A stretch of 64,000 nucleotides of DNA from Alphaproteobacteria bacterium (GCA_965601735.1 OZ271840.1:1080402-1144401); one strand, 5' to 3'; shown: positions 30,035-59,332, numbered from the stretch's first letter. A program made the numbers and translations. The notes: generated by a model from the letters alone, not told the origin.

Positions 30035-30086
30035 GCGCGGCGCGCCAGCCACTCCAGTGGGGACCCGGCGCCGAGCCGGGGCCGTC

Positions 30087-31340
30087 ATGAGCCTCTACGA
30101 CCGTTTCTCGGCTTTTTCCCGGGCCTTTCGACACCGCAATTACCGGCTCTATGCCGGCGGCAACGCCCTGTCGACCATCGGCCTGTGGATGCAGCGGGTC
30201 GGCGTCGGCTGGCTCGCCTGGGAGCTGACCGGCTCGGCGACCTGGCTCGGGCTGATCGCGTTCGCCGACATGTTCCCCACCGTTATCCTCAGCCCGCTCA
30301 CCGGGACGGTGACGGACCGCATCAACCGGCTGCGGCTGCTGCGGGTCACCCAGGCGCTCGTTGCTTTGCAGGCTTTGGCGCTGGCGGCGCTGATCTACCT
30401 CGATCACATCACCATCGTCTGGCTGCTGGCTCTGACCGTGGTGCGCGGCATCATTCTCGCGTTCAACCAGCCGGCGCGGCTGTCTCTGATTTCAGCCCTT
30501 GTCGGCACCGAGGATGTGGCGCCGGCGATTGCCATCAACGCGATGATCTTCAATGCGGCGCGCTTTGTCGGCCCGGCCATCGCCGGTGTGCTTCTGGTCG
30601 GCGGCGACACCTCGGCGCTGTTCGCGGTCAACGCCCTATGCTTCCTGTCCTTCTCGATAATGGCCGGCTTTGTGCAGCTGAATGAGCCGGACCGGCTGGC
30701 GCCCAAGGCCGGCCTGTTGCAGCAGACCCTGGAGGGCTACCGCTACGCCGCTGGTCATCAAGGCATCGGGCCACTGCTGCTGATGCTCTCGCTCACGGCG
30801 TTCGGCGCGCGGTCCTTTATCGAGCTGATGCCCGGGATCGCCGACGTGGTATTCGCGCGCGGGGCCGACGGGCTGGCCGCCCTGCTCGCGGTGATGGGCG
30901 TGGGCGCCATTGTCGGCGGGGCCTGGCTCGCCCAGCGCCCGACGCTGGATGGCCTGACCCGTGTGGTCATCACCAACCTGCTGATGCTGGCCGCCACCCT
31001 TTGTGCCTTTGCCGCGACCGGCATCTTCTGGGTCGGGCTAGTGGCGGTGTTCGTGCTCGGATTCGTGATCACCGTGAACGGTGCGGGGATCCAGACCTTG
31101 ATCCAGGCAGCGGTCGACGCGGAGGTGCGCGGGCGGGTGCTCGGCCTCTACGGCCTGATTGTGCGTGGTGCGCCGTCGATCGGCGCATTGCTGATGGGTG
31201 CCTTCGCCGAGCGCGTCGGCTTCGCCCTGCCCATGGTCTGCGGCGCGGCGATTTGCGTGCTGGCCTGGGGCCTCGCGACCCTGCGCCGCGGCCGCATGAC
31301 GCGGGCGCTGGAGCCCCGCGCCGCTGCGGCGCGGGACTGA
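30087..31340 (+). CDS. MFS transporter (EntS/MFS_3-like), paralog 2
   Basis: Trimmed to M47 (MSLYDRFSAFSRAFRHRNYRLYAGG...). Collinear and clearly paralogous to the upstream MFS gene. Confidence 0.7.
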   Translation: MSLYDRFSAFSRAFRHRNYRLYAGGNALSTIGLWMQRVGVGWLAWELTGSATWLGLIAFADMFPTVILSPLTGTVTDRINRLRLLRVTQALVALQALALAALIYLDHITIVWLLALTVVRGIILAFNQPARLSLISALVGTEDVAPAIAINAMIFNAARFVGPAIAGVLLVGGDTSALFAVNALCFLSFSIMAGFVQLNEPDRLAPKAGLLQQTLEGYRYAAGHQGIGPLLLMLSLTAFGARSFIELMPGIADVVFARGADGLAALLAVMGVGAIVGGAWLAQRPTLDGLTRVVITNLLMLAATLCAFAATGIFWVGLVAVFVLGFVITVNGAGIQTLIQAAVDAEVRGRVLGLYGLIVRGAPSIGALLMGAFAERVGFALPMVCGAAICVLAWGLATLRRGRMTRALEPRAAAARD

Positions 31341-31348
31341 CTCGCCGC

Positions 31349-32890
31349 TCAGCCGCGGCCGAAGCCGCCGCCGCCGGCGGTTTCCATCAACACGCTGTCG
31401 CCCTTGTGCAGCAGCTGGTGCTCAGCCACGTCGACCGGCTTGCCGTTGACCAGCACCTTGCCAGCGCGGCCATTGCCGCCGCCCATCAGGCCGCGCGGCG
31501 CGATGCGGATGCGGGTCATGATGAAGGAGCACAGGCCGGGCTCATCGCCCATGAAGTCGAAGCCGATGGAGATGCCCTGGCCACCCTTGTTCTTGCCGCG
31601 GCCGTTGCTCCGCGCGTTGAAGCCGCGGTGGCGGATCTTGATCGGCGCCAGCGACTCCATGACCTCGATGGGAGTATTGCCCAGATTTGACGGAAAGCTG
31701 ATCGCCGACTGACCGTCGCGCGCTGCATTGGCGCCCTGGCCGGCGTTGATGAAGTTCACCACCGCATAGCGCTGGCCCTTGTGGGCGCCGGTCATGGTGA
31801 AGGAGGAATTGGCGGATCCTTCCGCCAGCACACGGTCCGGCAGTACCGGCGCCAGGGCACCCATGATAGCCGGTACCATCATGTGCCCGATCATGCCGCG
31901 CGCACCGCTGGCGGCGGGGTAGCGCGGGTTGAAGATGGTGCCTTCCGGCGCCCAGGTCGAGACCGGCAGGAAGCTGCCCTCGTTGTTCGGGATGTCCGGT
32001 GACAGCAGCGCCTTCACCGCGTAGGCGGAGTAGGCGAATGTGTAGATCGGCACCACGTTGACCGAGCGGGGCAGCTGGGGCGAGGAGCCTGAGTAGTCGA
32101 TCGCCAGGTTGGTGCCCTTGATATTCACCTTGCAGTCGATGGTGATCGGATCCTCAAAGCCGTCATGCTGGATGACATAGCGGTAGTCGCCGTCAGGGAT
32201 GGCGCGGATCGCCTGGCGCATCGCCTTCTCGGAGCGGCCGCGCACTTCCTCGCCGAGGCGCGGCAGATCGAGGCCGGTCTCGTCGAGCAGCGCGCACAGC
32301 CTCTCGTCGAGCATCTGGCACGCCGCCACCTCGCCCCACACGTCGCCCATGGTCTGTGCCGGGACGCGCACGTTGCGTTCGATCATCTCGACCACCGCCT
32401 GGTCCGGCTTGCCCGCATGCATCAGCTTGAGGCGCGGGATCTGCAGCCCCTCCTCGAAGATCTCGCGGATGCCGGAATTGCGGATGCGCCCGCCAATGTC
32501 CGGCATGTGGCTGGTTACTGCCGCAAAGGCGACCGGCTTGCCCTTGTAGAAGATCGGCCGCGCGACGGTGATGTCATGCACATGGCCGGTGCCCATCCAG
32601 GGGTCGTTGGTAATCAGCACGTCGCCGTCCTTCAGCGTCTCCAGCGGGTAGACGTCCAGAAAGTGCTTCACCGTACGTGGCAGGGTGCCGATGAAAGACG
32701 GAATGCTCATGCTCGACTGCGCCAGCGACCGGCCCTGGGGATCGGTCAGAACCACGGCGAAATCGTTGGCCTCGCGCACCAGGGTCGAGAAGGAGGTGCG
32801 CACGAAGGTGGCGGATGCCTCGTCTACCATGCTCACGAGCCGGCCCCAGAGGACCTCGAGGGTGACGGGATCGAAGGTGGTCTTTGCCAT
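31349..32890 (-). CDS. Hydantoinase B / 5-oxoprolinase family protein (HyuB-like), copy 1
   Basis: 513 aa. Hydantoinase_B family: conserved N-terminus DPVTLEVLWGRLVSMVDEASATFVRTSFS and C-terminal GGGGFG. Confidence 0.75.
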   Translation of the reverse strand: MAKTTFDPVTLEVLWGRLVSMVDEASATFVRTSFSTLVREANDFAVVLTDPQGRSLAQSSMSIPSFIGTLPRTVKHFLDVYPLETLKDGDVLITNDPWMGTGHVHDITVARPIFYKGKPVAFAAVTSHMPDIGGRIRNSGIREIFEEGLQIPRLKLMHAGKPDQAVVEMIERNVRVPAQTMGDVWGEVAACQMLDERLCALLDETGLDLPRLGEEVRGRSEKAMRQAIRAIPDGDYRYVIQHDGFEDPITIDCKVNIKGTNLAIDYSGSSPQLPRSVNVVPIYTFAYSAYAVKALLSPDIPNNEGSFLPVSTWAPEGTIFNPRYPAASGARGMIGHMMVPAIMGALAPVLPDRVLAEGSANSSFTMTGAHKGQRYAVVNFINAGQGANAARDGQSAISFPSNLGNTPIEVMESLAPIKIRHRGFNARSNGRGKNKGGQGISIGFDFMGDEPGLCSFIMTRIRIAPRGLMGGGNGRAGKVLVNGKPVDVAEHQLLHKGDSVLMETAGGGGFGRG

Positions 32891-36882: not shown

Positions 36883-37629
36883 CTAGCGGCGGTCACCCAG
36901 CAGGTGCAGCAGCATGATGAACAGATTGATGAAGTTCAGGTAGAGCGACAGCGCGCCCATGATGGTCTTCTTGCCGGCGACCTCGCTGGAGTCGCCCTCG
37001 TAGTAAATGACCTTCATGCGCTGGGTGTCGTAGGCGGTCAGCCCGGTGAACACCAGCACGCCGATCACAGAGATGGCGAAATGAAGCGCGCTCGACGCCA
37101 GGAAGATGTTGACAATCATCGCGATGAAGATGCCGATCAGGCCCATGAACAGGAACGAGCCCCAGCCCGACAGGTCGCGCTTGGTGGTGTAGCCGTAGAG
37201 GCTCATCGCGGCGAAAGTGGCGCCCGCGATGAAGAACACACGCACGATGCTCTCGCCCGTATACAACAGGAAGATGTGGGTTAGCGACAGGCCCATCGCC
37301 CCGCTGAAGCCCCAGAACATTCCCTGCAGCGCGCTGTAGGAGAATCGCTCGACGCCGAAGGACATGAACATCACGAAAATCAGCGGCGAGAACATCACGA
37401 ACATGCCCAGCAGGGTCACGCCAGCGAACTGGCCCTGATCCGTGAAGTTGTAGAGCAGGCTGAGCACAGCCGGGGTGTTGGCGGAAAACGCGGCGACAAC
37501 GCCAGTCAGCGCCAGCCCGGAGGCCATGTAGTTGTAGATGCCCAGCATGTAGCTGCGCAGGCCGACATCGATATCGGCGGCCTCCGCCTGGGCGCGGGTC
37601 ATGAACTTGTCGTCGGGACCGGTAACCAT
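36883..37629 (-). CDS. Bax inhibitor-1 / YccA family inner-membrane protein
   Basis: 248 aa with 7 TM helices. Characteristic N-terminal ...GLRSYMLGIYNYM... and C-terminal basic tail. Confidence 0.75.
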   Translation of the reverse strand: MVTGPDDKFMTRAQAEAADIDVGLRSYMLGIYNYMASGLALTGVVAAFSANTPAVLSLLYNFTDQGQFAGVTLLGMFVMFSPLIFVMFMSFGVERFSYSALQGMFWGFSGAMGLSLTHIFLLYTGESIVRVFFIAGATFAAMSLYGYTTKRDLSGWGSFLFMGLIGIFIAMIVNIFLASSALHFAISVIGVLVFTGLTAYDTQRMKVIYYEGDSSEVAGKKTIMGALSLYLNFINLFIMLLHLLGDRR

Positions 37630-37771
37630 CGTTAAACCCTCAATTTCAGCATAAGTGTCCGCAACTGCCGCGCGCGGCCACGCCGGGCCGCCACAGCACC
37701 GCTTTATATGGTGGAAAGTGGCGGTATTTCAACGGTAATCGCTGTTTGCGTATGTTGGTGTAGCAGGACGT

Positions 37772-40327
37772 CTATTCGTTGCGCAGCAGCGGCGCCGCCT
37801 TCGCGCCCAGCGCCTGCCACGTCCCGGCCAGCCCGAAGGCAATGGTGATCGCGATGCATCCCAGCACCGTGCCCCCCACCACCAGGGGTTCGAGCACGAA
37901 CGGGCTTTGCATCATCAGGGCGATAACGGCCCAGGCGGCCACGCTGCCGACCACCGCGGCCAGCAGGCCGGTGACGGCGCCCAGAATGACGTACTCCAGC
38001 ATGAAGGCGCCAACCACGGTCGGCCGTGTCGCGCCGACAACCTTCAGCACCACCGCATCGTAGATGCGCCGGCGATGTCCGGCAGCCAGGGCGCCGGCCA
38101 GCACCAAGGCGCCGGCCAGCAGCGCCACGCCGGCGGTCGCCCTCACCGCACCGGCCAGCCGCTGGACCAGCTGGTTCACCGTGTCTAGCGCATCGCGCAC
38201 TGGCACCGCGGAGATGTTGGCGAAGCGGTCGGTGACCGCCGTCATCAGGGCGCGCTCGGCGCTCGGCGGCGCTTCCACCGTGGCGATGAAGGTGTAGGGC
38301 GCGGCATCGAGGATGCCCGGCGAGAACAGGAAGACGAAGTTGATGCCGAACGAACGCCAGTCCACCGTGCGCAGGTTGGCGATGGTGCCGGTGATCTCGC
38401 GCCCGAGGATGCGGAACGTGACCGTGTCACCGAGGCCGACGCCAAAGCCTTCAGCGATCTCAGCATCCATCGACAGCAGGGGCGGTCCGGCGTAATCCGG
38501 TGGCCACCACTCGCCGGCGACGAGCTGCGTGCCCCGCGGTGGCCGGTCCGCAAAGGTGAGCCCCCGGTCGCCCCGCAGCGCCCAGCGCGCATCGTCCGAC
38601 ACAGTGAGGTCCTCTGCCGCGACGCCTTTGACCGATACGATGCGCCCGCGCAGGCTGGCGACCCGTTCCGCCGCGCCCGCGCCGGGCACCGCCGCGACGA
38701 CTTCGTCGAACGCTTCCGCCTGATCGGCCTGGATGTCGATAAAGAAGAAGGCCGGCGCGCGCGACGGCCATTCGTCGGCGAGCTGGCGGCTAAGGTTCAC
38801 CTCCACCAGGACGACGGCGACCAGTACGGTCAGGCCCAGACCCAGGGACATCACAATCGACGGCGTCGGCGCGCCGGGCCGGTGGATATTCGACAATGCC
38901 AGCCGCAGCGCGGGCCGGCGTGGCCGTCCAGCACGGGCGGCGAGCGCGACAATGCCACGGCCGGCGAGCCGGAAGGCCAGAAGCGCCCCGACCGCGCCGA
39001 CCACGAACCAGCCGGCAAAAACTGGATCCGCCGCCGCGGCGATGGTCAGCACGGTCAGCAGGGCTGCGGTCGCAGCCGTGGCGAGCGCAACCCGCACCCC
39101 CGGCCCGGCCTGAGACGGTGCGATGGACTCACGAAACAGGCTGCCCGGCGGCACGCGGCGCGCCTGGCCCAGTGGCCACAAGCTGAACACCAGGGTGACG
39201 AGGACACCGTAAGCCGCGGCCAGGGCCAGGGCCTGCGGGTACAGGCCGACCTCGATAGGCGCGGGCAAAACGGACCCGAGCAGCCAGGCGCCGAGCGCCG
39301 GCGCCCCTGCGCCCACGGTCAGCCCGATAACGATAGCAAGCGATGCCAGCGCCAGGGTCTGCATCAGGTAGGCGGTGAAGATCAGCCGTGACGACGCGCC
39401 CAGGCCCTTCAGGGTGGCAATAGTCCGGGTCTTGCCGTCGAGGTAGCTGCGCACCGCGTTTGCAACCCCGACGCCACCAACCAGCAGCGCGGCGAAGCCC
39501 ACCAGGGTGAGAAACATGGTGGTCTGATCGACAACCCGCAGCAGCCCCGGTGCGGCCTGTCGCGCGTCACGAATACGCCAGCTCTCCTCAGGGAAAGCGC
39601 TACGGAACCGGTCTGCCCAGGCGTCCGCGTCGGTACCTTCGGGCAGTTGAACCGCGTAGCGGAAGCGCGCCAGGCTGCCCGGCTGCAACAGGCCGGTGGC
39701 ATCCAGCGCTGCCCGGCTGACCAGCATGCGCGGCCCGAAGGCGAAACGGCTGGACACCCGGTCTGGCTCATCGACGATAGCGGCGCGGACTTCCAATTCG
39801 GCATCGCCGACCCGCACCCGTGCGCCCGGTTCCATGCCGAGCTGGACCAGGACGCGGTCCTCGACCACTGCGCCAAAGATCCCGTCGCGCTGTTCCAGCG
39901 CCTCCGCCTGGCTGACGCCACCGGACAGGACCAGCGTGCCATAGAGCGGATAGGCGTCGTCGACCGCCTTGAACTCGACGACGGTGCGGTCGGTGCTTTC
40001 CGGCCGGGTCGCCGGCGTCAGCCGCCGCGCCATGGCGCGCATCTCCAGGCGCTCGGACACCGGCCCCTCTGCGGCAAGCCAAGCGCGCACCGGCGCGCTT
40101 GCCGCCTCATGAGTGCGCGACAGGGACACATCGCCGCCAAGCAGAGCGCTGCCGTCGCGCTCAAGCCCGGCCTGCATGGCGGCGGACAGTGAGGCGACCG
40201 CCCCGATGGACGCCACGCCGAGCACCAGGCAGGCGAGGAAGACGCGGAAGCCTGACAGGCCGCCGCGCAGTTCGCGCCGCGCCAGGACCGAGGCGAGAGA
40301 AAGGGTGTGCCAGCCGCCGTTCATCAA
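37772..40327 (-). CDS. ABC transporter permease with two FtsX-like domains (YbbP-like)
   Basis: 851 aa. Duplicated 4-TM FtsX/MacB-type permease modules with large periplasmic loops. Downstream of, and overlapping, the ATPase gene. Confidence 0.75.
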   Translation of the reverse strand: MMNGGWHTLSLASVLARRELRGGLSGFRVFLACLVLGVASIGAVASLSAAMQAGLERDGSALLGGDVSLSRTHEAASAPVRAWLAAEGPVSERLEMRAMARRLTPATRPESTDRTVVEFKAVDDAYPLYGTLVLSGGVSQAEALEQRDGIFGAVVEDRVLVQLGMEPGARVRVGDAELEVRAAIVDEPDRVSSRFAFGPRMLVSRAALDATGLLQPGSLARFRYAVQLPEGTDADAWADRFRSAFPEESWRIRDARQAAPGLLRVVDQTTMFLTLVGFAALLVGGVGVANAVRSYLDGKTRTIATLKGLGASSRLIFTAYLMQTLALASLAIVIGLTVGAGAPALGAWLLGSVLPAPIEVGLYPQALALAAAYGVLVTLVFSLWPLGQARRVPPGSLFRESIAPSQAGPGVRVALATAATAALLTVLTIAAAADPVFAGWFVVGAVGALLAFRLAGRGIVALAARAGRPRRPALRLALSNIHRPGAPTPSIVMSLGLGLTVLVAVVLVEVNLSRQLADEWPSRAPAFFFIDIQADQAEAFDEVVAAVPGAGAAERVASLRGRIVSVKGVAAEDLTVSDDARWALRGDRGLTFADRPPRGTQLVAGEWWPPDYAGPPLLSMDAEIAEGFGVGLGDTVTFRILGREITGTIANLRTVDWRSFGINFVFLFSPGILDAAPYTFIATVEAPPSAERALMTAVTDRFANISAVPVRDALDTVNQLVQRLAGAVRATAGVALLAGALVLAGALAAGHRRRIYDAVVLKVVGATRPTVVGAFMLEYVILGAVTGLLAAVVGSVAAWAVIALMMQSPFVLEPLVVGGTVLGCIAITIAFGLAGTWQALGAKAAPLLRNE

Positions 40328-41046
40328 GCCGGCTCGACCGCCCCGATTTGGCCGTCAAGGATCCGGACGGCGCGGCTGCAGCGTTCGGTCAGCGCGGGAT
40401 CGTGAGTGATCAGCATCAGGGTGGTACCGCTGCTTTCATGCAGTCCGAACAGCAAATCCATGATGCGTGCGCCCGTGTCACCATCCAGATTGCCGGTAGG
40501 CTCGTCAGCCAGCAGGATCGCCGGCTCGGTCGCAGACGCGCGCGCCAGCGCCACGCGTTGCTGCTCGCCACCCGACAGCTGGCCCGGATAATGGGTCAGC
40601 CGATGGCCGAGGCCGACTGCCTCTAGGCCCACGCGGGCGCGGTCGAACGCGTCGTCCCGCCCGGCGAACTCCAGCGGCACGGCAACATTCTCCAGCGCCG
40701 TCATGGTCGGGATCAGGTGAAAGCTCTGAAACACGATTCCGATATTGTCGCGGCGGAACTCTGCCAGCGCATCCTCATCCAGAGCGCCCAGTTCGGTGCC
40801 CGCGACCGCGACGCGGCCCGCAGTCGGGCGCTCCAGCCCGCCGATCACCATCATCATGGTTGACTTGCCCGAACCCGACGGGCCGATCACCGCGACGGAT
40901 TCGCCGCGCGCGACAGAGAGATCCATCCCGCGCAGGATATTCACCTCACCAGCCTCGCTTCCGAGGGTAAGATGCACATCTTCTAAGAGGATTGCTGCGT
41001 CGGCCGGATCGGCCTGCGCGGCGGCAGCGATAGCGGAACTATTCAT
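40324..41046 (-). CDS. ABC transporter ATP-binding protein (YbbA/LolD-like)
   Basis: Walker [13 protein letters not shown] signature [14 protein letters not shown], Walker [12 protein letters not shown]. The start may be downstream of the annotated ATG (see findings). Confidence 0.75.
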
Positions 41047-47530: not shown

Positions 47531-47854
47531 TTGTCGCGCTGGACAGTAATGATGGAGGCGGCGATGGCGGAGAGACTCGGGACCGATGAGTGGGCGCAGG
47601 CACTGGCCGGGCTGCCGGACTGGTCGCCGGTCAAGGGCCGCGATGCGATCACCCGCACCTACCAGTTTGCCGACTTCAACGCCGCCTTTGGCTTCATGGC
47701 TCGGGTGGCACTGGTGGCTGAGAAGATGGATCACCATCCCGAGTGGTTCAACGTCTACAACCGGGTCGAGGTCACGCTCAGTACCCACGATGCTGGTGGA
47801 GTGACACAGCTCGATATCACGCTCGCCGAGGTGATGGATGGCCTTGCCAAGTGA
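47531..47854 (+). CDS. phhB: Pterin-4a-carbinolamine dehydratase
   Basis: Conserved PCD core E.HHP.W..VYN.V...L.THD. The start is ambiguous among M1/M7/M8/M12. Confidence 0.65.
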
Positions 47855-48335
47855 CGAGATGAACCGGCGGCTGACGGACACCCCGGGGGCCGCGCTCTGG
47901 CTTGGCTTTGGCGGCGTGGTGCCTTTCGTCGCCGGGGCGGGGGCGGCCTGGCTGATGGCGCCAGCGCCGGCGGTGCTCGCGCTCAGCGCGACAGTGGCCT
48001 ATGGCGCGGTGATCCTTTCATTTCTTGGTGGGGTGCGCTGGGGCCTGGCGGCAGCCAGCTATGGCGGGCCGCCAACATCGATGCATTGGATCCTCAGCAT
48101 TCTGCCAGCGCTGGTCGGATGGGCGGCGAACCTGATGGCCTTAGCGCCGGGCCTAGGCCTGCTCACCGCCGCTTTCGCCTTGGCTTATTTCGCTGACGCC
48201 CGGGCCGTTCGCGATGGGCTAGCGCCGCCTTGGTACGGCGCCCTGCGCCGGCCGCTCAGCGGCCTCGTGGTGGCGAGCCTCGGCCTCTGTCTGCTGGCGG
48301 TGTCGGTGCGCTTTTCCGGCGCGCATGCAGGCTGA
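47838..48335 (+). CDS. DUF3429-family membrane protein
   Basis: About 160 aa with 4 TM helices and a Gly/Ala/Leu-rich sequence typical of DUF3429. The start may be M8 at 47859. Confidence 0.5.
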
Positions 48336-49176
48336 TGTCCAGCGTGGCGCCGATGATGAAAACCGCGCCCACCACGGTGTAGACGTCGGGTACCTCGCCG
48401 AAGAGTGCGAACCCCAGCAGTCCGGCAAACGGCAGGCGGAAATAGTCGAACGGGATCACCGCACTGGCCTCTGCGATCCGCATGGCGCGGAAGTTGAAGT
48501 ACTGCGAACCGATGGCGCATAGCGCCACCGCCGAAACCACCGCGACATCCCACATCGGCGGCGACTGCCACACCACGGCTGCACCCGGTGCCGTGGCGAT
48601 CAGCGAAAACAGGGACGCGTAGAACAGCACCGCGGTCGCGTTTTCTGTCGCTGCGAGCTTCTTGATCAGCACGATGACGCCCGCCGCGCAGACCGCGGCG
48701 CCAATCGCCGCCAGGGCGGCGGGCTGTACCGCTTCCATGCCAGGCCGCAGGATCACCAGGATGCCGAAGAAGCCAACCAGGGTTGCCAGCCAGCGCCGCC
48801 GGTCGACCCGTTCGGACAACAGCAATACCGCCATCACAGTGAGGAACAGCGGCTTGGTGAAGGCGTAGGTGGTGGCCTCCGCCAGCGGCAGGTTGATGAA
48901 GGCGTAGAAGATGCCGACGTTGCCCAGCGCGCTGACCGCGCCGCGCAGGAAATGGGTACCCAGGCGCCGGGTGCGGAGAGACGCGATGCCGCTGTGGGCG
49001 ACCAGCGGCAGCAGGATGACGACGGCAGCCACGCTGCGGATAAACACCAACTGCAGGGTATGGACCTGGCCGCTGGTTGCCTTGATCAGCGCCCCCATCA
49101 CAGCCACGACGGCCGCGGTGGTCAAAATCCACAATGCACCGCGGGTGTTTGGCGACAGGCCAGCGGGCGCGGGCAC
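48256..49176 (-). CDS. EamA/DMT-family transporter, paralog 1 of 7
   Basis: 306 aa, 10 TM helices. Duplicated EamA halves (…FTKPLFLTVMAVLLLSERV… / …AVIPFDYFRLPFAGLLGFALFGE…). Confidence 0.7.
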   Translation of the reverse strand: MPAPAGLSPNTRGALWILTTAAVVAVMGALIKATSGQVHTLQLVFIRSVAAVVILLPLVAHSGIASLRTRRLGTHFLRGAVSALGNVGIFYAFINLPLAEATTYAFTKPLFLTVMAVLLLSERVDRRRWLATLVGFFGILVILRPGMEAVQPAALAAIGAAVCAAGVIVLIKKLAATENATAVLFYASLFSLIATAPGAAVVWQSPPMWDVAVVSAVALCAIGSQYFNFRAMRIAEASAVIPFDYFRLPFAGLLGFALFGEVPDVYTVVGAVFIIGATLDISLHARRKSAPTPPADRGRGSPPRGR

Positions 49177-49188
49177 CCGGCCGCCCGC

Positions 49189-50064
49189 CTACGAACCGCC
49201 GCCGCGGGCGCGTTCGCGGTGGGCGATATACAGGGTGGCGAATACGATCACTGCCGCTCCCAGCCAGGTGAACGGGCCGGGCAGTTCACTGAACAGCAGC
49301 CAGCCCCAGATGGTGGCGAACAGCAGCCGGAAATAGTCGAACGGCGCCACTGCGCTAGCCTCGCCTACCTTCAGCGCACGGATGGTGCACATCTGCGCTG
49401 CGGTACCGAGGATGCCGATGGCGACGCCTACCGCGACAACGTCCCAGCCCACCGGTTTCCAGACCGGAATCGCCGGAAACAGACTTAGCACCGCGGTGCC
49501 GGCGACCGAATAGAAGACGATGGTCGACGGCGCCTCGGTGGTCGAGAGGGATTTCCCGAGCAGCGCCTGCAGCGCGTAGCCGAGCGCTGCGATCAGCGCG
49601 GCGATCGCGCCGAAGGAAATCTCCTCAATCCCCGGGCGGGTGATGATCAGAACACCCAAGAACCCGACAGACACCGCGCTCCACCGCCGCCAGCCAACAA
49701 TCTCACCGAACAGGATCACCGCCAGGATGGTCATCCACAAAGGCTTGGTGAAGGTCAGCGCCACCGCCTCGGCCAGGGGCAAGGCGATGAAGGCGTAGAT
49801 CGAGAAGAAGATCGCGCACAGAACGGTCACCGCACTGGCCAAGTGCATACCGCGCCGCTGGGTGCCCAGCGCCTCGCCGAGGTTGCCGGCGATCAGCGGC
49901 AGCACCGCCAGCAGCCCGAAGGCGCAACGAAAGAAGGTAATCTGCAGGCTGTGATAGCCCTCCAGCGCCAGCCATTTCACCAGTGCCGACATGGTCGGAT
50001 AGCTAATACTGGCCAGCATTATCCACATGATGCCGCGCAAGTTGGGCGACAGGCCACCGGTCAT
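49189..50064 (-). CDS. EamA/DMT-family transporter, paralog 2
   Basis: 291 aa. Collinear with paralog 1 (LTFTKPLWMTILAVILFGEIV...). Confidence 0.7.
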   Translation of the reverse strand: MTGGLSPNLRGIMWIMLASISYPTMSALVKWLALEGYHSLQITFFRCAFGLLAVLPLIAGNLGEALGTQRRGMHLASAVTVLCAIFFSIYAFIALPLAEAVALTFTKPLWMTILAVILFGEIVGWRRWSAVSVGFLGVLIITRPGIEEISFGAIAALIAALGYALQALLGKSLSTTEAPSTIVFYSVAGTAVLSLFPAIPVWKPVGWDVVAVGVAIGILGTAAQMCTIRALKVGEASAVAPFDYFRLLFATIWGWLLFSELPGPFTWLGAAVIVFATLYIAHRERARGGGS

Positions 50065-50969
50065 GGCCGCACCGCCTTACCCAGCTGCGCCTCGCGCCGG
50101 GCGATGTAATAGGCCGCGCCGATGATGATCATTGCCCCGGCGATCGTGAAGGAATCGGGAAGTTCGCTGAAGAACATGTAGCCGATCAGCGCCGACCAGA
50201 TCAGCCGGGTGTAGTCGAACGGGATCACCGCGCTGGCCTCTGCGACCGCGAAGGCGCGGATGATGAAGTACTGGTTCACCGTACCGGCAAGCCCAAGTAG
50301 GGCGGCGAAGATCAAGGCTTCCATGTCCGGGGTCTGCCAGACCAGCGCAGCCGGAACCGCCAGCAGCAGGGTCGTGGTGCAGGCCGCGTAGAGCATGATG
50401 GTGACCGGCTTCTCCGTCTCTGAGAGCTGCTTCACCAGAATGTTGGTCAGCGCGAACATGAAGGCGCCGCCCAGCGCGACGAAGGCCTCCGGCTGCACCC
50501 CGCCGCCACCCGGTCGCATCATCACCAGCACGCCGATGAAACCCACCGCGACCGCGACCCATCGGTGCCGGCCAACCACTTCTGCCAGCATCACCGCCGC
50601 CAGCATGGTCATGAACAGGGGCTTCGTGAAGGTGTAGGCCACGGCGTCGGCCAGCGGCAGCACCGCGGTGGCGAACACGAGACAGAAGTTGGAGATCGCG
50701 CCGGTCAGACCGCGCACCGCGTGCAGGCCTGGCCGCTGCGTGCGAAAGCCGGTCCGTCCGACGCTGACGGCGATCGGCAGCACGATCAGCAGCGCAAAGA
50801 CGGCACGGAAGAAGGTGACCTGGAAGCTGTGAAACTGTTCGCCCAGCACCTTCATCATGGTCGCCATGATGGCGAACGAGACCGCGGCGATGATCATCCA
50901 CAGCGCGCCGCGGACGTTGGGCGGGATCGTCTCGGCCCAGGCCGAGAGCCGGGCTGAGATCTGGTTCAC
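50061..50969 (-). CDS. EamA/DMT-family transporter, paralog 3
   Basis: Track ORF 50061..51080 trimmed to a GTG that overlaps the upstream paralog's TGA (GTGA). The alignment with paralogs 1/2 begins at ...NVRGALWMIIAAV. Confidence 0.6.
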   Translation of the reverse strand: MNQISARLSAWAETIPPNVRGALWMIIAAVSFAIMATMMKVLGEQFHSFQVTFFRAVFALLIVLPIAVSVGRTGFRTQRPGLHAVRGLTGAISNFCLVFATAVLPLADAVAYTFTKPLFMTMLAAVMLAEVVGRHRWVAVAVGFIGVLVMMRPGGGGVQPEAFVALGGAFMFALTNILVKQLSETEKPVTIMLYAACTTTLLLAVPAALVWQTPDMEALIFAALLGLAGTVNQYFIIRAFAVAEASAVIPFDYTRLIWSALIGYMFFSELPDSFTIAGAMIIIGAAYYIARREAQLGKAVRP

Positions 50970-51874
50970 CGCCGCTTGCCCTGCAATGCTTCGTGGAAAG
51001 CGATATAGAGCGCCGCGGCCACAATCACGGCCGCCCCGGCGAGCGTGAACATATCCGGCAGTTCGCTGAACACGATCCAACCGATCAGCCCGGACCAGAT
51101 CAGGCGGGTGTAATCAAAGGGGACGACGGCACTGGCGTCGGCGATGCGCCAGGCGCGAATCATCAAATACTGGTTCGCGGCGCTCATCACCGCCATTAAC
51201 AGCACCAGCATCCAGCCATACAGGCTGGGCCATTCCCAAACGAATAGCGCCGGCGGGAAGGAGATGAGGGATGTGAAAATCCCTGCGTATAGCAGAATCG
51301 TCACGGGCCGCTCCGTGGCTGAGAGCTTCTTCACCAGCACATTGACCACGGCAAAGAAGAAGGCGCCGCCCAGCGCAACGAACGCCCCCGGATCAAGGCC
51401 ACCCACGCCCGGGCGCATCATAATCAGCACGCCCAGGAAGCCCACGGCCACCGCCCCCCAGCGCTGCCATGAGACGATCTCTGGCAGCATCAAGGCGATC
51501 AGCACCGTCATGAACAGCGGCTTGGTAAAGGTGAACGCCGTCGCTTCCGCCAGTGGCAAGTAGGTGAAGGCGTAGACAAGACAGAACAGGGAAATGCCGC
51601 TGGCGACGCCGCGCTGGGCATGGACCTTGAGGCGCCGGGTGCGGAAGGCGTCGGCGCCGACCCGCAGCACTGCGGGCATGACCACGGCCAGCATGGTGAT
51701 CGAGCGCAGGAACGTCAGCAGGAATGGGTCGTAATCCTCGCCCAGCATCTTGATCGCCATGCCCTGGAGGGCGAAGGCCATGGCAGCCAAGGACACCCAA
51801 GCGGCCCCGCGCGCGTTGCCGGGAATCGACTCAACGAAGGACGCCGGGCGCTTCGGGGAGTGTGGTTCGTGCAA
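50966..51874 (-). CDS. EamA/DMT-family transporter, paralog 4
   Basis: 302 aa. Same subfamily as paralogs 1-3 (FTFTKPLFMTVLIALMLPEIV...). Confidence 0.7.
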   Translation of the reverse strand: MHEPHSPKRPASFVESIPGNARGAAWVSLAAMAFALQGMAIKMLGEDYDPFLLTFLRSITMLAVVMPAVLRVGADAFRTRRLKVHAQRGVASGISLFCLVYAFTYLPLAEATAFTFTKPLFMTVLIALMLPEIVSWQRWGAVAVGFLGVLIMMRPGVGGLDPGAFVALGGAFFFAVVNVLVKKLSATERPVTILLYAGIFTSLISFPPALFVWEWPSLYGWMLVLLMAVMSAANQYLMIRAWRIADASAVVPFDYTRLIWSGLIGWIVFSELPDMFTLAGAAVIVAAALYIAFHEALQGKRR

Positions 51875-51952
51875 AGGCTGCTGTCTCGGCGGGGCAAATT
51901 AGGTTGCGCTGCATCATTGTGGTACGCACCGTCGCAGCGCACAACGCAGGCG

Positions 51953-52846
51953 TCAGGAACCGCGCCGCTTCGCCCGTGCTTCGCGGTGCGCGATATAGGC
52001 ACCGGCGGTGAAGATCACCCCGGCACCGATCCAGCTCCACAGGTCCATCAGTTCCCCGAACCAGATCAACCCGACCATCGCGCCATAGGGCAGGCGCAGG
52101 AAGTCGAGCGGCGCTACCACCGAGGCATCCGCGCGGCTGAACGCAATGGTGTAGAGCGTCATGCCCACCGTGCCGGTCGCGGCCATCGCCAGCGCGCCGA
52201 TCAGGAATGCCGTGCTGGGCGCCTGCCATACCCATAGGGCAGCGGGCAGCAGGAACGGCGTCGCATAGAGATACATGTACAGCATGATGGTGGTGGGAGA
52301 TTCGGTACGGCTGAGCGCGCGTACCATCAGCATCACCGAGCCCATGATCGCGGCGACCAGCAGCGGCACGATGGAGGCCGGCTCGTAGGCGGCGAAGCCC
52401 GGCCTGAGGATGATCAGGCTGCCCAGCACGCCGATCGCGACGGCGGCCCAGCGCCGCGGCCCCACGCGCTCGCCAAGGAACAGGGCCGCCCCGAGGGTGG
52501 CCCAGATCGGTACCGTGAAGTTGAGCGCGGTGGCCTTGTCGATGGGCAGCAATTGCAGCGAGAACACCCATCCCGCGGTCAGCGCCGCGGTCGCCAGCCC
52601 GCGCAGCACCAGCAAGCCGTGCCGCTGGCTGCGCAGGGGGGCAAGGCCGGTGTAGAGCAGCACTGGCGCGACGAACACCAGGCCGAACAGCATGCGCAGG
52701 AAGGCGACCTGGAAGGGATGGAATTCCTGGCTCCAGTGCCGCATGAAGCCGTTGACGATGGCCGCGCAGAGCGTCGCCAGCGCCATCGCCAGTGCTGCCT
52801 GGACCGGAGGCGGCACCCGCTCGAACAGCGCCACCGCCCGCTTCAC
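51953..52846 (-). CDS. EamA/DMT-family transporter, paralog 5 (second subfamily)
   Basis: 297 aa. Distinct subfamily signature LPIDKATALNFTVPIWAT...ILRPG. Confidence 0.7.
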   Translation of the reverse strand: MKRAVALFERVPPPVQAALAMALATLCAAIVNGFMRHWSQEFHPFQVAFLRMLFGLVFVAPVLLYTGLAPLRSQRHGLLVLRGLATAALTAGWVFSLQLLPIDKATALNFTVPIWATLGAALFLGERVGPRRWAAVAIGVLGSLIILRPGFAAYEPASIVPLLVAAIMGSVMLMVRALSRTESPTTIMLYMYLYATPFLLPAALWVWQAPSTAFLIGALAMAATGTVGMTLYTIAFSRADASVVAPLDFLRLPYGAMVGLIWFGELMDLWSWIGAGVIFTAGAYIAHREARAKRRGS

Positions 52847-53742
52847 GGCCGTTTCGCCCTGGCCAGCTGCGCCTCACGCCGGGCGATGAAGGCGGCGGCG
52901 AGGAAGATCACCCCGGCACCCACCCAGCTCCAGCCATCCATTAATTCGCCGAACCAGATCCAACCGATCATCGCGCCCAGCGGCAGGCGCAGGAAATCGT
53001 GCGGCGCAACGAAGGAGGCATCGGCGAGAGTCAGCGCCCGGGCGATCAGCAGGTGTGCGCACGAGCCCATCACCCCGAGCAGGAATGTGGCCAGCAGGAA
53101 GCCGGGCGTGGGGGTGACCCAGACCGGCAGCGCCATCACCAGTGCGAAGGGTGTCGAGTACAGACCCATATAAAGGACGATGGTGTGGGGCGGGTCGGTG
53201 CGCGACAGCACTTTGACGATCAGCAGCGATCCACCCATCAGCGCCGCGGCCGCCAGCGGCACCAGGGATGCCGGCTCGAAGGCGCCGATCCCCGGCCGCA
53301 TGATGATCAGGCTGCCGACAATGCCGACCAGGACAGCCGCCCAGCGCCGGGGGCCGACAGCCTCGCGCAGGATCAGCGCCGCGCCGATCGTTGCCCACAA
53401 GGGTACGGTGAAGTTCAGCGCCGTCGCCTTGTCCACCGGCAGCAGCATCAGCGCATAGACCCAAAGCGCAGTGGCGACTGCGGCGACGAAGCCACGGAAG
53501 ATGTAGAGCGGCTGCCGGGTCGTGCGCAGGGCGCCGAAGCCGAGGCGCACCAGCACCGGGGCCAGAAACACCAGGCCGAAGAACAGCCGGAAGAAAGCGA
53601 CCTCAAGCGCCGGCCAGTCCTGGCTCAGGTAGCGCATCCAGCCGTTCATGATCGACTGGAAGGTCGCCGCGCCAAGGCAGCAGACGCTGACCTGCACCGG
53701 CACCGGCAGGGCGAGAAACGGCCGCAACAGGGCGGCGATCAC
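52843..53742 (-). CDS. EamA/DMT-family transporter, paralog 6 (second subfamily)
   Basis: 299 aa. LPVDKATALNFTVPLWATIGAALIL. 4-nt overlap with paralog 5. Confidence 0.7.
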   Translation of the reverse strand: MIAALLRPFLALPVPVQVSVCCLGAATFQSIMNGWMRYLSQDWPALEVAFFRLFFGLVFLAPVLVRLGFGALRTTRQPLYIFRGFVAAVATALWVYALMLLPVDKATALNFTVPLWATIGAALILREAVGPRRWAAVLVGIVGSLIIMRPGIGAFEPASLVPLAAAALMGGSLLIVKVLSRTDPPHTIVLYMGLYSTPFALVMALPVWVTPTPGFLLATFLLGVMGSCAHLLIARALTLADASFVAPHDFLRLPLGAMIGWIWFGELMDGWSWVGAGVIFLAAAFIARREAQLARAKRP

Positions 53743-54662
53743 GGGCCGTCCTCGCTGCGGGTGCGTGCGGCCTTCGCGACCTGCGACTCGCGATGGGCGA
53801 TGTAGGCGCCGGCGGCGAAGATCACGGCGGCGCCGACCCAGCTCCAGAAATCCATCAATTCACCGAACCAGAACCAGCCGACGATGGCGCCGAAGGGCAG
53901 CCGGAAGAAGTCATAGGGCACGACGGCGGAGGCTTCGGCCATGGCGAAGGCGCGCGTCAGCATGTACTGGCCGGTGGCACCGAACGCGCTGAGCACGAAC
54001 AGCAGGCCCAGGATCGTGGTATCCGGCGTCTGCCACACCGGCAGTGTCGCCAGCAGCAGGAAGGGCGTCGAGTAGATGCCCATATAAAGCACGATGGTGT
54101 GCGCTGGCTCGGTGCGCGACAGGGTCTTCACGATCAGCATCGACAGGGCCATGCCCACCGCGGCGGCCAGTGGCACCAGGGACGCCGGCTCATAGGCCTC
54201 CAGCCCGGGACGCAGGATCACCAGGCTGCCCAGGATGCCGATCCCGACAGCGCTCCAGCGCCGCGCGCGCACCCGTTCGCGCAGGATCAGCGCTGCTCCG
54301 ATGGTGGCCCAGATCGGCACGGTGAAGTTGAGCGCCGTCGCCTTGTCGATCGGTAGAAGATAGAGCGAGTACATCCACATGCCGCTCTGTACCGCGACCA
54401 GCGCGCCGCGAAGCAGCAGCAGGCCGTGTCGGTCGGTGCGCAGGCCTGCGAGGCCCGTGCGGAGCAGGATCGGCGCCATGAAGATGGTGCCGAACAGGGC
54501 GCGGAAGAACGCGACCTCGATCGCCGGGATTGACTGGCTGGTATAGCGGATGAACCCGTTGGCGATGGCGAACATCAGCATCGCTCCGCCCGCCAGCAGG
54601 CCGACCCGGGCAGAGACGGGAAGGCGCCGGAAGGCGGCGAGTAAGGGGTCCGCGAGGGACAT
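53739..54662 (-). CDS. EamA/DMT-family transporter, paralog 7 (second subfamily)
   Basis: Trimmed to M74 (MSLADPLL..., 307 aa). LPIDKATALNFTVPIWATIGAALIL. 4-nt overlap with paralog 6. Confidence 0.7.
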   Translation of the reverse strand: MSLADPLLAAFRRLPVSARVGLLAGGAMLMFAIANGFIRYTSQSIPAIEVAFFRALFGTIFMAPILLRTGLAGLRTDRHGLLLLRGALVAVQSGMWMYSLYLLPIDKATALNFTVPIWATIGAALILRERVRARRWSAVGIGILGSLVILRPGLEAYEPASLVPLAAAVGMALSMLIVKTLSRTEPAHTIVLYMGIYSTPFLLLATLPVWQTPDTTILGLLFVLSAFGATGQYMLTRAFAMAEASAVVPYDFFRLPFGAIVGWFWFGELMDFWSWVGAAVIFAAGAYIAHRESQVAKAARTRSEDGP

Positions 54663-54780
54663 TGGACGGGTTCCGGGCGAGGGGTGCCGGGTCGTGGCGT
54701 CATGCCCGGCTTCCAGCCTATAACAATAGGCATAAAGCAGACGGCCGCGCAGCAACGGCCGGCAGGACAGGGAGGACGCG

Positions 54781-56730
<1,950 letters not shown>

Positions 56731-56737
56731 ATCCGCC

Positions 56738-57967
56738 CTAGTTAAGCGCCCACCAGCAGGTGGCATTGCCGCCAGCGATGCGGGCGGCCAGCGGCCGCTG
56801 ATCGACCAGGGCAATGTCCTCATGCACCAGGTTGCGCAGGGCCTGGGTATTGGGATGATGCGGGAAGCGCCGCATATAGGGCTCCGCCCACGCCATGTAG
56901 CGGTTGCGGCCGCGCGGGATCAGGAAGCCGAGGTCCTGTTCGCGCCAGTTGTTGCTGGGGCCAGGCCGGTAGTTGGCCTTGGCGTAGTCCAGTACCAGGG
57001 ACGGGTCGGCGATGCCCCGCATCAGGAAATCGACGGCGGTGTGCAGGTCGGCGCCCTGCGGCCCCTTCAGGGCATAGAGGTCGTAGCCTTGGTTGGCGGC
57101 GACCTCAGCGATCACCACCAGGTTGGTGACACCGTGGCGCTGATACCACAGGGCGCGGGCGCCGCGCTGGGTTTCCAGCGGCAGGCTGCCGTCCGGGCGC
57201 ATCTGTGCCAGCGCCACCACATAGCGCTCAATGCCCTTCTGGAAGCGCGCATCGTCGCCGCTCAACGCGCCCCACATGGCGTTCATCGAATCACGCAGAT
57301 AGCGGTGGTTGTTGCAGTTGGAGTTGTTCTCGTTACCGGGGCAGTTGCGCACCTTGTCGCGGCTCTTCTTGGTACCCGTGTTCACGTCGGCCAGTGCCAC
57401 CAGCTGGCCGATCCAGGCCTCGATCTCGGCCCGCTTGTTCGGCTCCAGCACGGGGTCGTCGCGGAACATTGACCAGGCCGGGATCACTGTGTTCAGGCTG
57501 CGTTTTAGGCCGAACAGCACATTGTGGTTGGAGCCCTTGCGGTCGTCGCGGATGCGGGTCATCGCGCCGACCCGCGACCAGTTCACCAGCAGGGCGCGCA
57601 GGTCCTTCGCCGCCGTGCGGTCGCCTGCCCCGAAGGCCGCCGCAGACAGGTGGGTCACCGACCAGTCGAAGTCGGTGACGGTCTTGTCGGTGCCGCCGTA
57701 GCGCGCCTTGCCTTGCAGGTCGGTGATCGGCTTCAGCATCCGCTTGGAGCGCGACACCGGCACCTTGCACCAGGCCTCTGCTCGTTGTGCGCCGAGGCGC
57801 GCCAACTCCTCGCGCCGCGCTGCCGGCTCGGCGACCACGATGCCGGGCCGCGTCACCGTGAACTCCGACAGCGCCCGCCCGGCGATGCCGGCGAACGGAT
57901 CGTCGGCGGCGGCAGGCGCCGCACCGAGCAGCAGGATGAGGCCCAGGGCCCAACGTCTCATGGTCAC
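56738..57967 (-). CDS. Secreted alginate-lyase-family (PL5-like) protein
   Basis: 409 aa with a signal peptide. NNHRYL matches the NNH(S/T)YW catalytic-region motif of AlgL-type lyases. Confidence 0.55.
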   Translation of the reverse strand: MTMRRWALGLILLLGAAPAAADDPFAGIAGRALSEFTVTRPGIVVAEPAARREELARLGAQRAEAWCKVPVSRSKRMLKPITDLQGKARYGGTDKTVTDFDWSVTHLSAAAFGAGDRTAAKDLRALLVNWSRVGAMTRIRDDRKGSNHNVLFGLKRSLNTVIPAWSMFRDDPVLEPNKRAEIEAWIGQLVALADVNTGTKKSRDKVRNCPGNENNSNCNNHRYLRDSMNAMWGALSGDDARFQKGIERYVVALAQMRPDGSLPLETQRGARALWYQRHGVTNLVVIAEVAANQGYDLYALKGPQGADLHTAVDFLMRGIADPSLVLDYAKANYRPGPSNNWREQDLGFLIPRGRNRYMAWAEPYMRRFPHHPNTQALRNLVHEDIALVDQRPLAARIAGGNATCWWALN

Positions 57968-58114
57968 GCTCCAGTTGCGGCATGTCCGCGAACGCCGCGG
58001 ATCATACGCAATCGGCTGCTATGGTTGAATCACATCTCTGCCATGCGCGAACGGGGGTGTCGCGCCGCCGCTGCCCCGTCGTACGCTGCTATCTCGCTGC
58101 TGCCGGAGCCACGC

Positions 58115-59332
58115 ATGACCCGACTTGCCCTGATCGTCCTCGCGGGCGCCTCCCTGATCCTCGCGCTCAGCATGGGCGTACGTCATGCCTTTGGCCTGTT
58201 CATCTCGCCGGTGATCGTCGACCTCGGCTTTAGCGCCTCGGCGATCTCGTTTGCGCTGGCGGTGCAGAACCTGATTCGTGGCCTGGCACAGCCCCTGTTC
58301 GGCATGGTCGCCGACCGCTTTGGCCCAGTGTGGGTGCTGCTCGCGGGCGGGCTGCTTTATGGCGTCGGCCTTGCGGTGATGGCCGAGGGTGAGACCCTGC
58401 TGCTGTTCAACATCGGCGCTGGCTGGCTGGTTGGCCTCGGCATCAGCGCCACCGGCATCCCCATCGTGCTGGGCGCCGTCGCGCGCCTGGTGCCGGCGGA
58501 GCGCCGCTCCAGCGCCTTCGGCGTGGTCACGGCGATCGGCTCCGGCGGGCAGTTCGTCATGGCGCCGGTGACCCAGGGCCTGATCGGTGGCTTCGGCTGG
58601 AGCCTGACCACCTGGGTTCTGGCGGCGGCCATGATGCTGGTGGTCCCCCTGGCCCTGATGGTGCGCTCTGCAGGTGCCGCCAACGACGAAGCCGGCGGCA
58701 GTCCGGTACAGGCAGAGCATGACGCCGGCGGGGTGTTGGCTGCCACGGCCGAGGCGTTCCGCGAGCGCGGCTACTGGCTGGTGATCCTGGGCTTTTTCAC
58801 CTGCGGTTTCCACGTCACCTTCATCGCGGTGCATCTGCCTGGCTACCTGGAAAGCTGTGGCATGCCGCCGTCACTGGCGGGCTGGGCCATCGGGCTTGTC
58901 GGCCTGTTCAACATGCTGGGCACCTGGGTGGTGGGCCACCTCGGCGACCGCTTTCCTAAGAAGTACCTGCTCAGCGCGCTCTACACTTCGCGGATGCTGA
59001 TCATCATTGCCTTTGTGACCATCCCGATAACCCCGGTCACCGTGATCATCGCGTCCGCCTTCCTTGGCATGACCTGGCTGGCCACCGTGCCGGTGACCAG
59101 CGGGCTGGTCGCCACCATATTCGGCGCGCGCTACCTGTCGACCCTGTTCGGCATCGTCTTCCTGAGCCACCAGGTCGGCGCCTTCCTCGGTGCCTGGCTG
59201 GGCGGGGTGCTGTTCGACATGACCGGCAGCTATCTGGAGATGTGGTACCTCACAGCCGGCCTGGCGGTATTCTCGGCGATCGTCCATCTGCCGGTGCGCG
59301 AGCGCCCGCTGCACGCACCCGCCACCGCCTGA
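58115..59332 (+). CDS. MFS transporter
   Basis: The C-terminal 405 aa of track ORF 57524..59332, starting at MTRLALIVLAG. 12 TM helices, MFS motif A-like GMVADRFGP. The upstream part of the ORF is antisense to the lyase gene. Confidence 0.7.
   Translation: MTRLALIVLAGASLILALSMGVRHAFGLFISPVIVDLGFSASAISFALAVQNLIRGLAQPLFGMVADRFGPVWVLLAGGLLYGVGLAVMAEGETLLLFNIGAGWLVGLGISATGIPIVLGAVARLVPAERRSSAFGVVTAIGSGGQFVMAPVTQGLIGGFGWSLTTWVLAAAMMLVVPLALMVRSAGAANDEAGGSPVQAEHDAGGVLAATAEAFRERGYWLVILGFFTCGFHVTFIAVHLPGYLESCGMPPSLAGWAIGLVGLFNMLGTWVVGHLGDRFPKKYLLSALYTSRMLIIIAFVTIPITPVTVIIASAFLGMTWLATVPVTSGLVATIFGARYLSTLFGIVFLSHQVGAFLGAWLGGVLFDMTGSYLEMWYLTAGLAVFSAIVHLPVRERPLHAPATA

Follow-up and report, generated by a model that had tools for sequence, protein, structure and literature searches.

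Introduction

Few groups of bacterial transporters are as numerous, and as little characterized, as the drug/metabolite transporter (DMT/EamA) carriers. In the DMT carriers of solved structure, transmembrane (TM) helices TM1–4 and TM6–9 line the cavity and supply the substrate-binding residues, as set out in the work on LicB (PMC8890701), and the gates open and close by rocking of the TM3-TM4-TM6 and TM1-TM8-TM9 bundles (10.1101/169169; PMC8890701). The charge make-up of the binding site sets strict exchange, as in TPT, or uniport, as in YddG (10.1101/169169). TM5 and TM10 form the homodimer interface in TPT, Vrg4, and CST, and dimerization is reported to aid transport or stability for Vrg4 and CST (10.1101/169169; PMC8890701). 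Characterized S-adenosylmethionine (SAM) transporters also exist within the EamA family (PMC3104491). The system analyzed here is an array of seven adjacent EamA genes in a 64,000-nucleotide stretch of DNA from an Alphaproteobacteria bacterium (GCA_965601735.1, OZ271840.1:1080402–1144401), referred to as the window, and all positions are counted from its first nucleotide. The explanation that we favor, and consider reasonably probable, is that the array encodes secondary carriers that are expressed together, act independently, and have diversified in substrate.

Results

Gene structure of the array

Seven consecutive complete open reading frames (ORFs) occupy positions 48256–54662 of the minus strand, each of them a two-domain EamA gene for a DMT carrier with ten transmembrane helices (10-TM). 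The original prediction, made from the window alone, had proposed this same set, and all seven ORFs were recovered with the coordinates it gave and with two EamA domains each. The genes are numbered E1–E7 by coordinate; array positions are counted in the order of transcription, from E7 (position 1) to E1 (position 7). E5–E7, which carry the motif LPxDKATALNFTVP, are designated type B, and E1–E4, which carry the motif FTKP, type A. The type-B permeases are E7 (53739–54662, 307 aa, EamA ×2 at E 5e-25, TM4 motif LLPIDKATALNFTVP), E6 (52843–53742, 299 aa, GTG start, EamA ×2 at E 1.7e-25), and E5 (51953–52846, 297 aa, EamA ×2 at E 3.6e-29), the last identical to database protein P0001. The type-A permeases are E4 (50966–51874, 302 aa, TTG start, EamA ×2 at E 6.7e-29, TM4 motif LPLAEATAFTFTKP), E3 (50061–50969, 302 aa, GTG start, EamA ×2 at E 1.2e-30), E2 (49189–50064, 291 aa, ATG start, EamA ×2 at E 2.9e-26), and E1 (48256–49176, 306 aa, EamA ×2 at E 1.7e-30).

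The start accepted for E7 and for E3 lies downstream of that of the longest ORF. The sequence context of the E7 ATG start is kept in four loci (the window and the related loci L001, L002, and L003 described below) and the start agrees with database protein P0008 (307 aa). The GTG start of E3 at 50969 is backed by database protein P0121 (302 aa), to which E3 is identical, and the longest ORF, which extends to 51080, would run into E4. No frameshift or internal stop was seen in any of the seven genes, and no further copy of the subfamily is present elsewhere in the window.

The original prediction had dismissed all plus-strand ORFs of this interval as antisense artifacts. This holds for the internal ones, as the seven largest plus-strand ORFs inside the array have no Pfam match and the sole internal plus-strand frame that passes the filter on GC content at third codon positions (GC3) has an atypical value at first positions (GC1 = 0.44). 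It does not hold at the edge, where the 3′ end of a real plus-strand DUF3429 gene (47838–48335, Pfam E 2.7e-33) enters the first 80 nt of the array (48256–48335) in a convergent overlap with E1. The C-terminal tail of E1 (17 residues) has no counterpart in its L001 ortholog, which is shorter (288 aa).

Family assignment and predicted fold

All seven proteins match the Pfam EamA family (PF00892) at 88.7–106.9 bits against a cutoff of 28.2, in two stretches per protein (E 1e-25 to 1e-30). The AlphaFold2 model of E5 (pLDDT 90, pTM 0.88) shows 10 long helices after a short N-terminal helix, and the other six proteins align without large gaps. Comparison of the E5 model with the PDB by Foldseek resulted in 37 matches at E ≤ 0.001, all of them DMT carriers, with TMq values of 0.59–0.77. 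Its structural neighbors comprise SLC35B1 (0.70–0.77), LicB (0.70–0.72), YddG (PDB ID 5I20, mostly 0.64–0.68), Vrg4, TPT, and CST, at 12–20% identity, and no carrier is specifically closest. A PDB sequence search with E5 and E3 gave no match, and a profile gave only NIPA2 (E 0.004). By profile match and predicted fold, the seven proteins are secure members of the EamA/DMT superfamily and belong to an uncharacterized alphaproteobacterial subfamily.

None of the NCBIfam equivalogs reaches its cutoff for any of the seven proteins. The best NCBIfam match is the carboxylate/amino acid/amine transporter family TIGR00950 (2.A.78) at 50.9–65.9 bits, compared with a cutoff of 230.2. The YddG model NF050091 scores 26.4 bits for E1 against a cutoff of 300 and gives no match at E ≤ 0.01 for E2–E7. 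RarD (NF011959) reaches 18.5 bits against 540, the phosphonate-associated DUF6 model (TIGR03340) 15.7–20.1 against 288, and the ArnE model, with the type-B proteins, 18.6–23.1 against 92. Homologs in public sources are named only "DMT family transporter," apart from an automated JGI label, "S-adenosylmethionine uptake transporter," on proteins 40–47% identical.

These scores bear on the idea, raised in the original prediction, that the array encodes amino acid or metabolite exporters, overflow valves like YddG, RhtA, and EamA that were multiplied to serve several compounds. Such an explanation overlaps with the one favored here and differs only in fixing the direction of transport as efflux. 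It can draw on the presence of YddG among the structural matches of E5 and on the AsnC/Lrp-type regulator that is divergently paired with a related three-gene array in Thalassospira, a class of regulator for which control over a gene for an EamA-like transporter has been reported in P. aeruginosa (PMC8707732). However, the YddG and RarD equivalog scores lie far under their cutoffs (26 versus 300 and 18 versus 540 bits), no regulator gene adjoins the array in the window, and the charged TM4 and TM9 sites are unlike the mostly hydrophobic pocket of YddG. The structural matches are equally good to the importer LicB and to the exchangers SLC35B1 and TPT, so that the direction and coupling of transport are not readable from the fold. 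A set of dedicated exporters is accordingly a rather poor bet.

Divergence, orthology, and selection

Protein identity is 39–54% within E1–E4 and 55–58% within E5–E7, but only 31–39.5% between the two types, and the motifs quoted in the original prediction for two subfamilies are present in the respective groups, so that this division is borne out. At the DNA level the paralogs are 48–65% identical. Identity at third codon positions is 39–54%, which is close to saturation (genome GC3 about 83–88%).

The same seven genes occur at the corresponding locus in an Acetobacterales metagenome-assembled genome (MAG; L001, GCA_040905765.1) and in a JGI metagenome contig (L002), where the last gene is truncated as the contig stops. 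When the window is compared with L001 and L002, the best match of each position is the same position, with 66–87% identity compared with at most 60% to other positions, and all seven orthogroups have 100% bootstrap support. Identities to the L001 and L002 orthologs, respectively, are 74 and 82% for E7, 73 and 85% for E6, 76–77 and 86% for E4, 75 and 87% for E3, 66 and 87% for E2, and 71 and 87% for E1. Because positional one-to-one orthologs are found in L001 and L002, the duplications are older than the split of these lineages. Seven same-family matches in a row, in an order preserved in other genomes, cannot be due to chance. The dense, operon-like arrangement and its unusual density, as noted in the original prediction, are upheld.

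Every copy is retained under purifying selection. Pairwise ratios of nonsynonymous to synonymous substitution (dN/dS) for all seven genes are 0.11–0.20 against L002 and 0.22–0.33 against L001, with ranges of 0.20–0.30 for E7, 0.18–0.28 for E6, 0.11–0.22 for E4, and 0.12–0.24 for E1.

An assembly artifact, a recent dosage amplification, or a decaying pseudogene array would leave a repetitive locus, and a repetitive look is the only feature that speaks for any of them, the longest direct DNA repeats between copies being merely 60–81% identical. Paralog identities of 31–58% with saturated third positions indicate neither assembly collapse or expansion nor recent amplification for dosage; the same seven genes stand in the same order in two independent assemblies; and the intact frames and dN/dS values of 0.11–0.33 in all seven genes rule out pseudogenes. 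The array is a set of old, diverged copies, and an origin by any of these three routes has practically no probability left. Both of the scenarios that the original prediction had named as able to undo it, artifact and decay, are thereby excluded, and dosage, which it had offered as one purpose of the array, is rejected, each copy being individually conserved.

Copy number in relatives and history of duplication

Related loci were gathered from a scan of species-representative genomes (27 loci) and from a metagenome scan (16 more). A recurring chromosomal frame, common to Rhodospirillales-like Alphaproteobacteria, consists of a divergent acetoacetate-CoA ligase gene, n EamA genes, and then Pterin_4a, Zincin_1, UDG, and SIR2, with n from 1 to 7. 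The question of whether relatives carry one, two, or seven copies thus receives a graded answer, roughly 1, 2, 3, 6, or 7 by lineage. There are seven copies in the window clade, six in the groundwater proteobacterial MAG L003 (five type-B-like and one type-A-like), three in Thalassospira, without a type-A-like gene, and three in two further alphaproteobacterial MAGs (L026 and L030). Two copies, B-like then A-like, are present in the Rhodovibrionaceae MAG L010 and in MAG L008; MAG L012 has two adjacent copies in the same B-like, A-like order and a third about 5 kb downstream; several other lineages have one. No further seven-copy array was found in the metagenome scan, which gave fragments only, or elsewhere among the scanned loci. 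Among 72,556 plasmid records, 145 places in 134 records were found, and the relatives there are almost always single.

Additional copies lie outside these arrays. An eighth DK-motif type-B paralog, P0019 (287 aa, LLPVDKATALNFTVP), is located outside the window on the same 3.27 Mb contig, and the L003 MAG has single DK-type copies on two other contigs (L005 and L007). In Thalassospira tepidiphila (L014; features at 9314–9775 and 6043–7074, both on the minus strand) the three-gene array is divergently paired with the AsnC/Lrp-type regulator and has no adjacent ligase gene; just upstream lie a more distant EamA gene and a Na+/H+ exchanger-family gene.

In the tree, the DK-motif type-B clade has 100% bootstrap support, and positions 4 and 5 are sisters at 100%. 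Position 6 (E2) groups with the single type-A gene of L003 at 100%, so that these two are orthologous. A broad type-A clade, to which the second gene of each two-gene locus also belongs, has 60–68% support, and positions 1 and 2 of L003 and positions 2 and 3 of Thalassospira each group together at 100%. Bootstrap values do not support the type-B trio of the window clade (20%) or the FTKP set (8%) as monophyletic, and the tree gives no firm order of duplication within either type. The most economical history looks like an old pair of genes, B then A, in which, within the window lineage, B underwent at least two more duplications and A at least three before the three sampled lineages split. Two rounds of local amplification, as originally proposed, are too simple a description of this tree. 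Other lineages expanded partly independently of the window lineage, the groupings within L003 and within Thalassospira being examples.

Helix-by-helix divergence

For comparison of individual helices, the boundaries of one predicted structure (E5) were transferred by alignment, with three genomes per orthogroup. TM1, TM3, and TM8 have identities of 0.22–0.26 among the seven window paralogs and 0.66–0.72 between window and L001 orthologs, whereas for TM4, TM5, and TM9 the corresponding values are 0.54–0.57 and 0.71–0.89. TM5 has the highest ratio of paralog to ortholog conservation of the helices (0.80), and TM10 shows no particular conservation.

The groups also differ in the TM4 motif. In the wider family it is LPLAEATALNFTVP, with AE and no lysine. 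In the expanded type-B clade, LP(I/V)DKATALNFTVP, AE is replaced by DK and there is no lysine at position 112. In type A, LPLAEA..(T/A)FTKP, AE is combined with Lys-112, an acquired lysine located two residues ahead of the proline that breaks the helix. All groups retain the pseudo-symmetric TM9 motif, P.D(F/Y).RL, and the conserved basic residues in predicted TM helices are Arg-51, Arg-82, Lys-112, Arg-234, and Arg-251.

In this pattern the scaffold and the gating core are held constant and the walls of the cavity vary, with every variant fixed in its own orthogroup, as diversification of the substrate site would predict. Of the purposes suggested by the original prediction, substrate diversification is the one best supported by the divergence pattern, from which we infer it.

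Junctions, coupled expression, and possible assembly of paralogs

Four junctions (E7/E6, E6/E5, E4/E3, and E3/E2) are 4-nt GTGA/ATGA start/stop overlaps. The E2/E1 junction is a 12-nt spacer, and the E5/E4 junction is a gap of 78 nt (51875–51952) that separates the type-B block from the type-A block, exactly as the original prediction had described. The gap contains, on the minus strand, the element TTGTGC-N17-CACAAT (TTGTG-N18-CACAA, 51917–51944), which occurs once in the window and is invariant in the window, L001, and L002, while its flanks differ. It falls below threshold in a scan for the sigma-70 consensus. From its sequence and conservation the element is a candidate internal promoter or operator, in which case the type-B and type-A blocks would be separable units. 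No strong terminator-like sites were found in the gaps of the array. The four overlaps, the lack of a strong terminator, and the conserved gap motif suggest that expression of the genes is coupled.

Structured RNA was considered for the 78-nt gap and rejected, the z-scores being −0.3 to +0.5 and the 13-pair consensus of three sequences having only two compensatory pairs. A riboswitch or other known RNA in the leader, in the gap, or around the array was likewise rejected, as there was no Rfam match even at E ≤ 1.

Coupling of this kind would also be a feature of paralogs that pair or assemble, A with B or as mixed dimers through TM5 and TM10, into a single composite transporter or a small number of them. 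The 4-nt overlaps point to translation that is coupled and near-stoichiometric, the gene order is strict in three genomes, the ancestral unit appears to be a B-A pair as in L008, L010, and L012, and conservation across paralogs, relative to that across orthologs, is highest in TM5. The conservation of TM5 is expected regardless of assembly, because this helix has the generic glycine-rich/RPG motif of EamA proteins, and the other helix of the interface, TM10, is not set apart in this way. Every one of the proteins is by itself a full 10-TM unit and has a cavity of its own, and a literature search turned up no heteromeric 10-TM DMT carrier. The numbers of B and A genes are unequal and variable (3:4, 5:1, and 1:1, and three genes without a type-A-like one in Thalassospira), and close relatives occur as singletons, including the eighth copy in the same genome. 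A 697-aa ORF at 6796–8886 of L022 that seemed to fuse two complete EamA proteins proved to be two adjacent genes joined by a masked N run ("XXX"), and this apparent fusion lends the idea no support. We regard hetero-oligomeric assembly as unlikely. Its more specific form, in which the products of one operon would join through the conserved face of TM5 (for example B with A) into mixed dimers or oligomers and so give a combinatorial set of composite transporters, is a long shot. Were it true, the assembly would be the first heteromer of full-length 10-TM DMT carriers, and the coupling, the gene order, and the B-A pair would be its genomic signature. Independence of the copies is instead suggested by the singletons in many genomes and plasmids and by the unequal A:B numbers (4:3 here and 1:5 in L003).

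The divergent ligase gene and the shared intergenic region

Upstream of E7, a divergent intergenic region of 118 bp (54663–54780) leads to the acetoacetate-CoA ligase gene (54781–56730, plus strand), which matches TIGR01217 at 971 bits against a cutoff of 521. The region contains the palindrome CCTAT-TGTT-ATAGG (54717–54730), which is unique in the window where 0.01 would be expected by chance. It is kept in L002 and, with a 1-nt deletion, in L001, but not in the more distant loci L003, L009, L010, and L012. Judged from its sequence, the region is a candidate operator or promoter region of the array. The same region has, at 54742–54761 on the minus strand, a GC-rich hairpin and, after it, a T-rich run, an element that is kept in L002 and less so in L001; its plus-strand complement lies directly upstream of the GGAGG ribosome-binding site of the ligase gene, and it may be a leader structure of either gene. 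The ligase ortholog is split into two called genes in L001 and is called as 441 aa in L002, possibly as a result of frameshifts or assembly errors in those contigs.

The neighboring gene raises the possibility that the carriers import acetoacetate, 3-hydroxybutyrate, and related short-chain carboxylates for the ligase. The enzyme is a genuine acetoacetate-CoA ligase and divergently adjoins EamA arrays in seven relatives' loci over a wide span (L001, L002, L003, L009, L010, L012, and L032, with ligase identities of 54–89%), and here the two share the 118-bp region with its conserved palindrome. TIGR00950, a family that includes carboxylate transporters, is the best NCBIfam match, although well under its cutoff, and the basic residues in predicted TM helices may be compared with the anion-binding site of TPT (10.1101/169169). 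The adjacency weighs little, however, because the whole neighborhood is syntenic, including the unrelated housekeeping genes Pterin_4a, Zincin_1, UDG, and SIR2. In Thalassospira the array has the AsnC/Lrp-type regulator in place of a ligase, the palindrome is limited to the three closest genomes, and one ligase cannot account for seven carriers. Uptake of ketone bodies or short-chain carboxylates therefore seems improbable.

Other features of the window

The AT skew over the array is +0.17 to +0.35, which probably reflects the T-rich second codon positions of membrane proteins. Strong AT-skew blocks are also present at 29000–32000 and 37000–41000 (about −0.17 to −0.33 and +0.12 to +0.21, respectively), and these may encode large membrane proteins as well. 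Beyond the ligase gene, a gene for an alginate-lyase-family protein (56738–57967, minus strand) adjoins one for an MFS transporter of the lactate/oxalate-formate type (57509–59332, plus strand). The MFS domain is reached only at about residue 207 of the longest ORF, which places the probable true start near 58130 and makes the overlap of the long ORF with the lyase gene probably spurious. The only RNA gene detected in the window is a tRNA-Thr (anticodon CGT) at 11167–11241 (plus strand).

Discussion

Under the explanation that we favor, the array would encode seven separate full-length 10-TM DMT/EamA secondary carriers, each with its own central cavity. One or two promoters would drive expression of the genes together, in two blocks with translational coupling inside each, positions 1–3 (type B) and positions 4–7 (type A), separated by the 78-nt gap with its promoter-like element. 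Each protein would most likely act alone, or as a homodimer of independent protomers, and transport would proceed by rocker-type alternating access between the two inverted 5-TM repeats. Repeated tandem duplication of a two-gene B-A pair would have produced the array long ago, and its copies may have been retained because they differ in cargo, TM4, TM5, and TM9 having been preserved and TM1, TM3, and TM8, which line the cavity, having diverged. Each carrier would then be tuned to a different small polar or charged metabolite.

Several points weigh against this explanation. Neither experiment nor orthology points to a substrate for any of the carriers, the available names stopping at "DMT family transporter." The comparison of helices draws on three genomes per orthogroup, one predicted structure, and transferred helix boundaries, and early drift in TM1, TM3, and TM8 after duplication, followed by constraint, would produce the same pattern without any change of substrate. 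Co-transcription is read from spacing only, and tight coupling with strict gene order would also be expected of a multi-subunit assembly.

The superfamily is well known and tandem expansion of paralogs is familiar; the array is unusual in its size and age, in how strictly each position is conserved, and in the gradation of copy number that relatives show at a single locus. No description of a tandem EamA array or of an EamA heteromer was found in the literature searched. The array represents a compact natural experiment in the evolution of transporter specificity after duplication, in which the conserved TM4/TM5/TM9 scaffold and the divergent TM1, TM3, and TM8 indicate which residues to swap. 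If substrates were assigned, the annotation would extend to a whole uncharacterized DMT subfamily of Alphaproteobacteria. For now, the array is a neat example of paralog expansion and not a new kind of system.

Comparison with described carriers places the array proteins firmly within a known architecture. YddG of Starkeya novella (PDB ID 5I20) has the same fold, with two EamA domains in about 300 aa and 10 TM helices arranged as two inverted 5-TM repeats. In contrast to the array, YddG is a single gene, identity in the structural alignment is 17–20%, and its pocket is mostly hydrophobic (10.1101/169169), whereas the array proteins have conserved charged residues in TM4 and TM9. The choline importer LicB (PDB IDs 7PAF and 7B0K), SLC35B1, and the TPT/NST exchangers are the best structural matches and share the TM1–4/TM6–9 cavity and alternating access, but they are only 13–17% identical and their substrates (choline, nucleotides, and sugar phosphates) are unrelated.

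The SAM transporters of Rickettsia and Chlamydia belong to the same Pfam family and are of similar size. The automated JGI label is attached to distant homologs that are 40–47% identical to both types. No SAM riboswitch lies upstream of the array, and the host appears to be free-living and not an obligate intracellular parasite dependent on SAM import.

Heterodimeric SMR pairs and ArnE/ArnF resemble the array in being adjacent, translationally coupled paralogs of the DMT superfamily. They are, however, 4-TM half-transporters that pair into one pore, whereas the array proteins, at 291–307 aa, are complete 10-TM units.

The closest counterparts are the shorter tandem sets of the same subfamily, with three copies in Thalassospira, two in Rhodovibrionaceae, and six in L003. 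Pterin_4a lies downstream in all of them, UDG is shared by Thalassospira and Rhodovibrionaceae, Zincin_1 by Rhodovibrionaceae and L003, and the ligase is often found upstream. The sets differ from the window array in copy number and composition, and the DK variant of the TM4 motif together with the seven-gene order is confined to the window clade.

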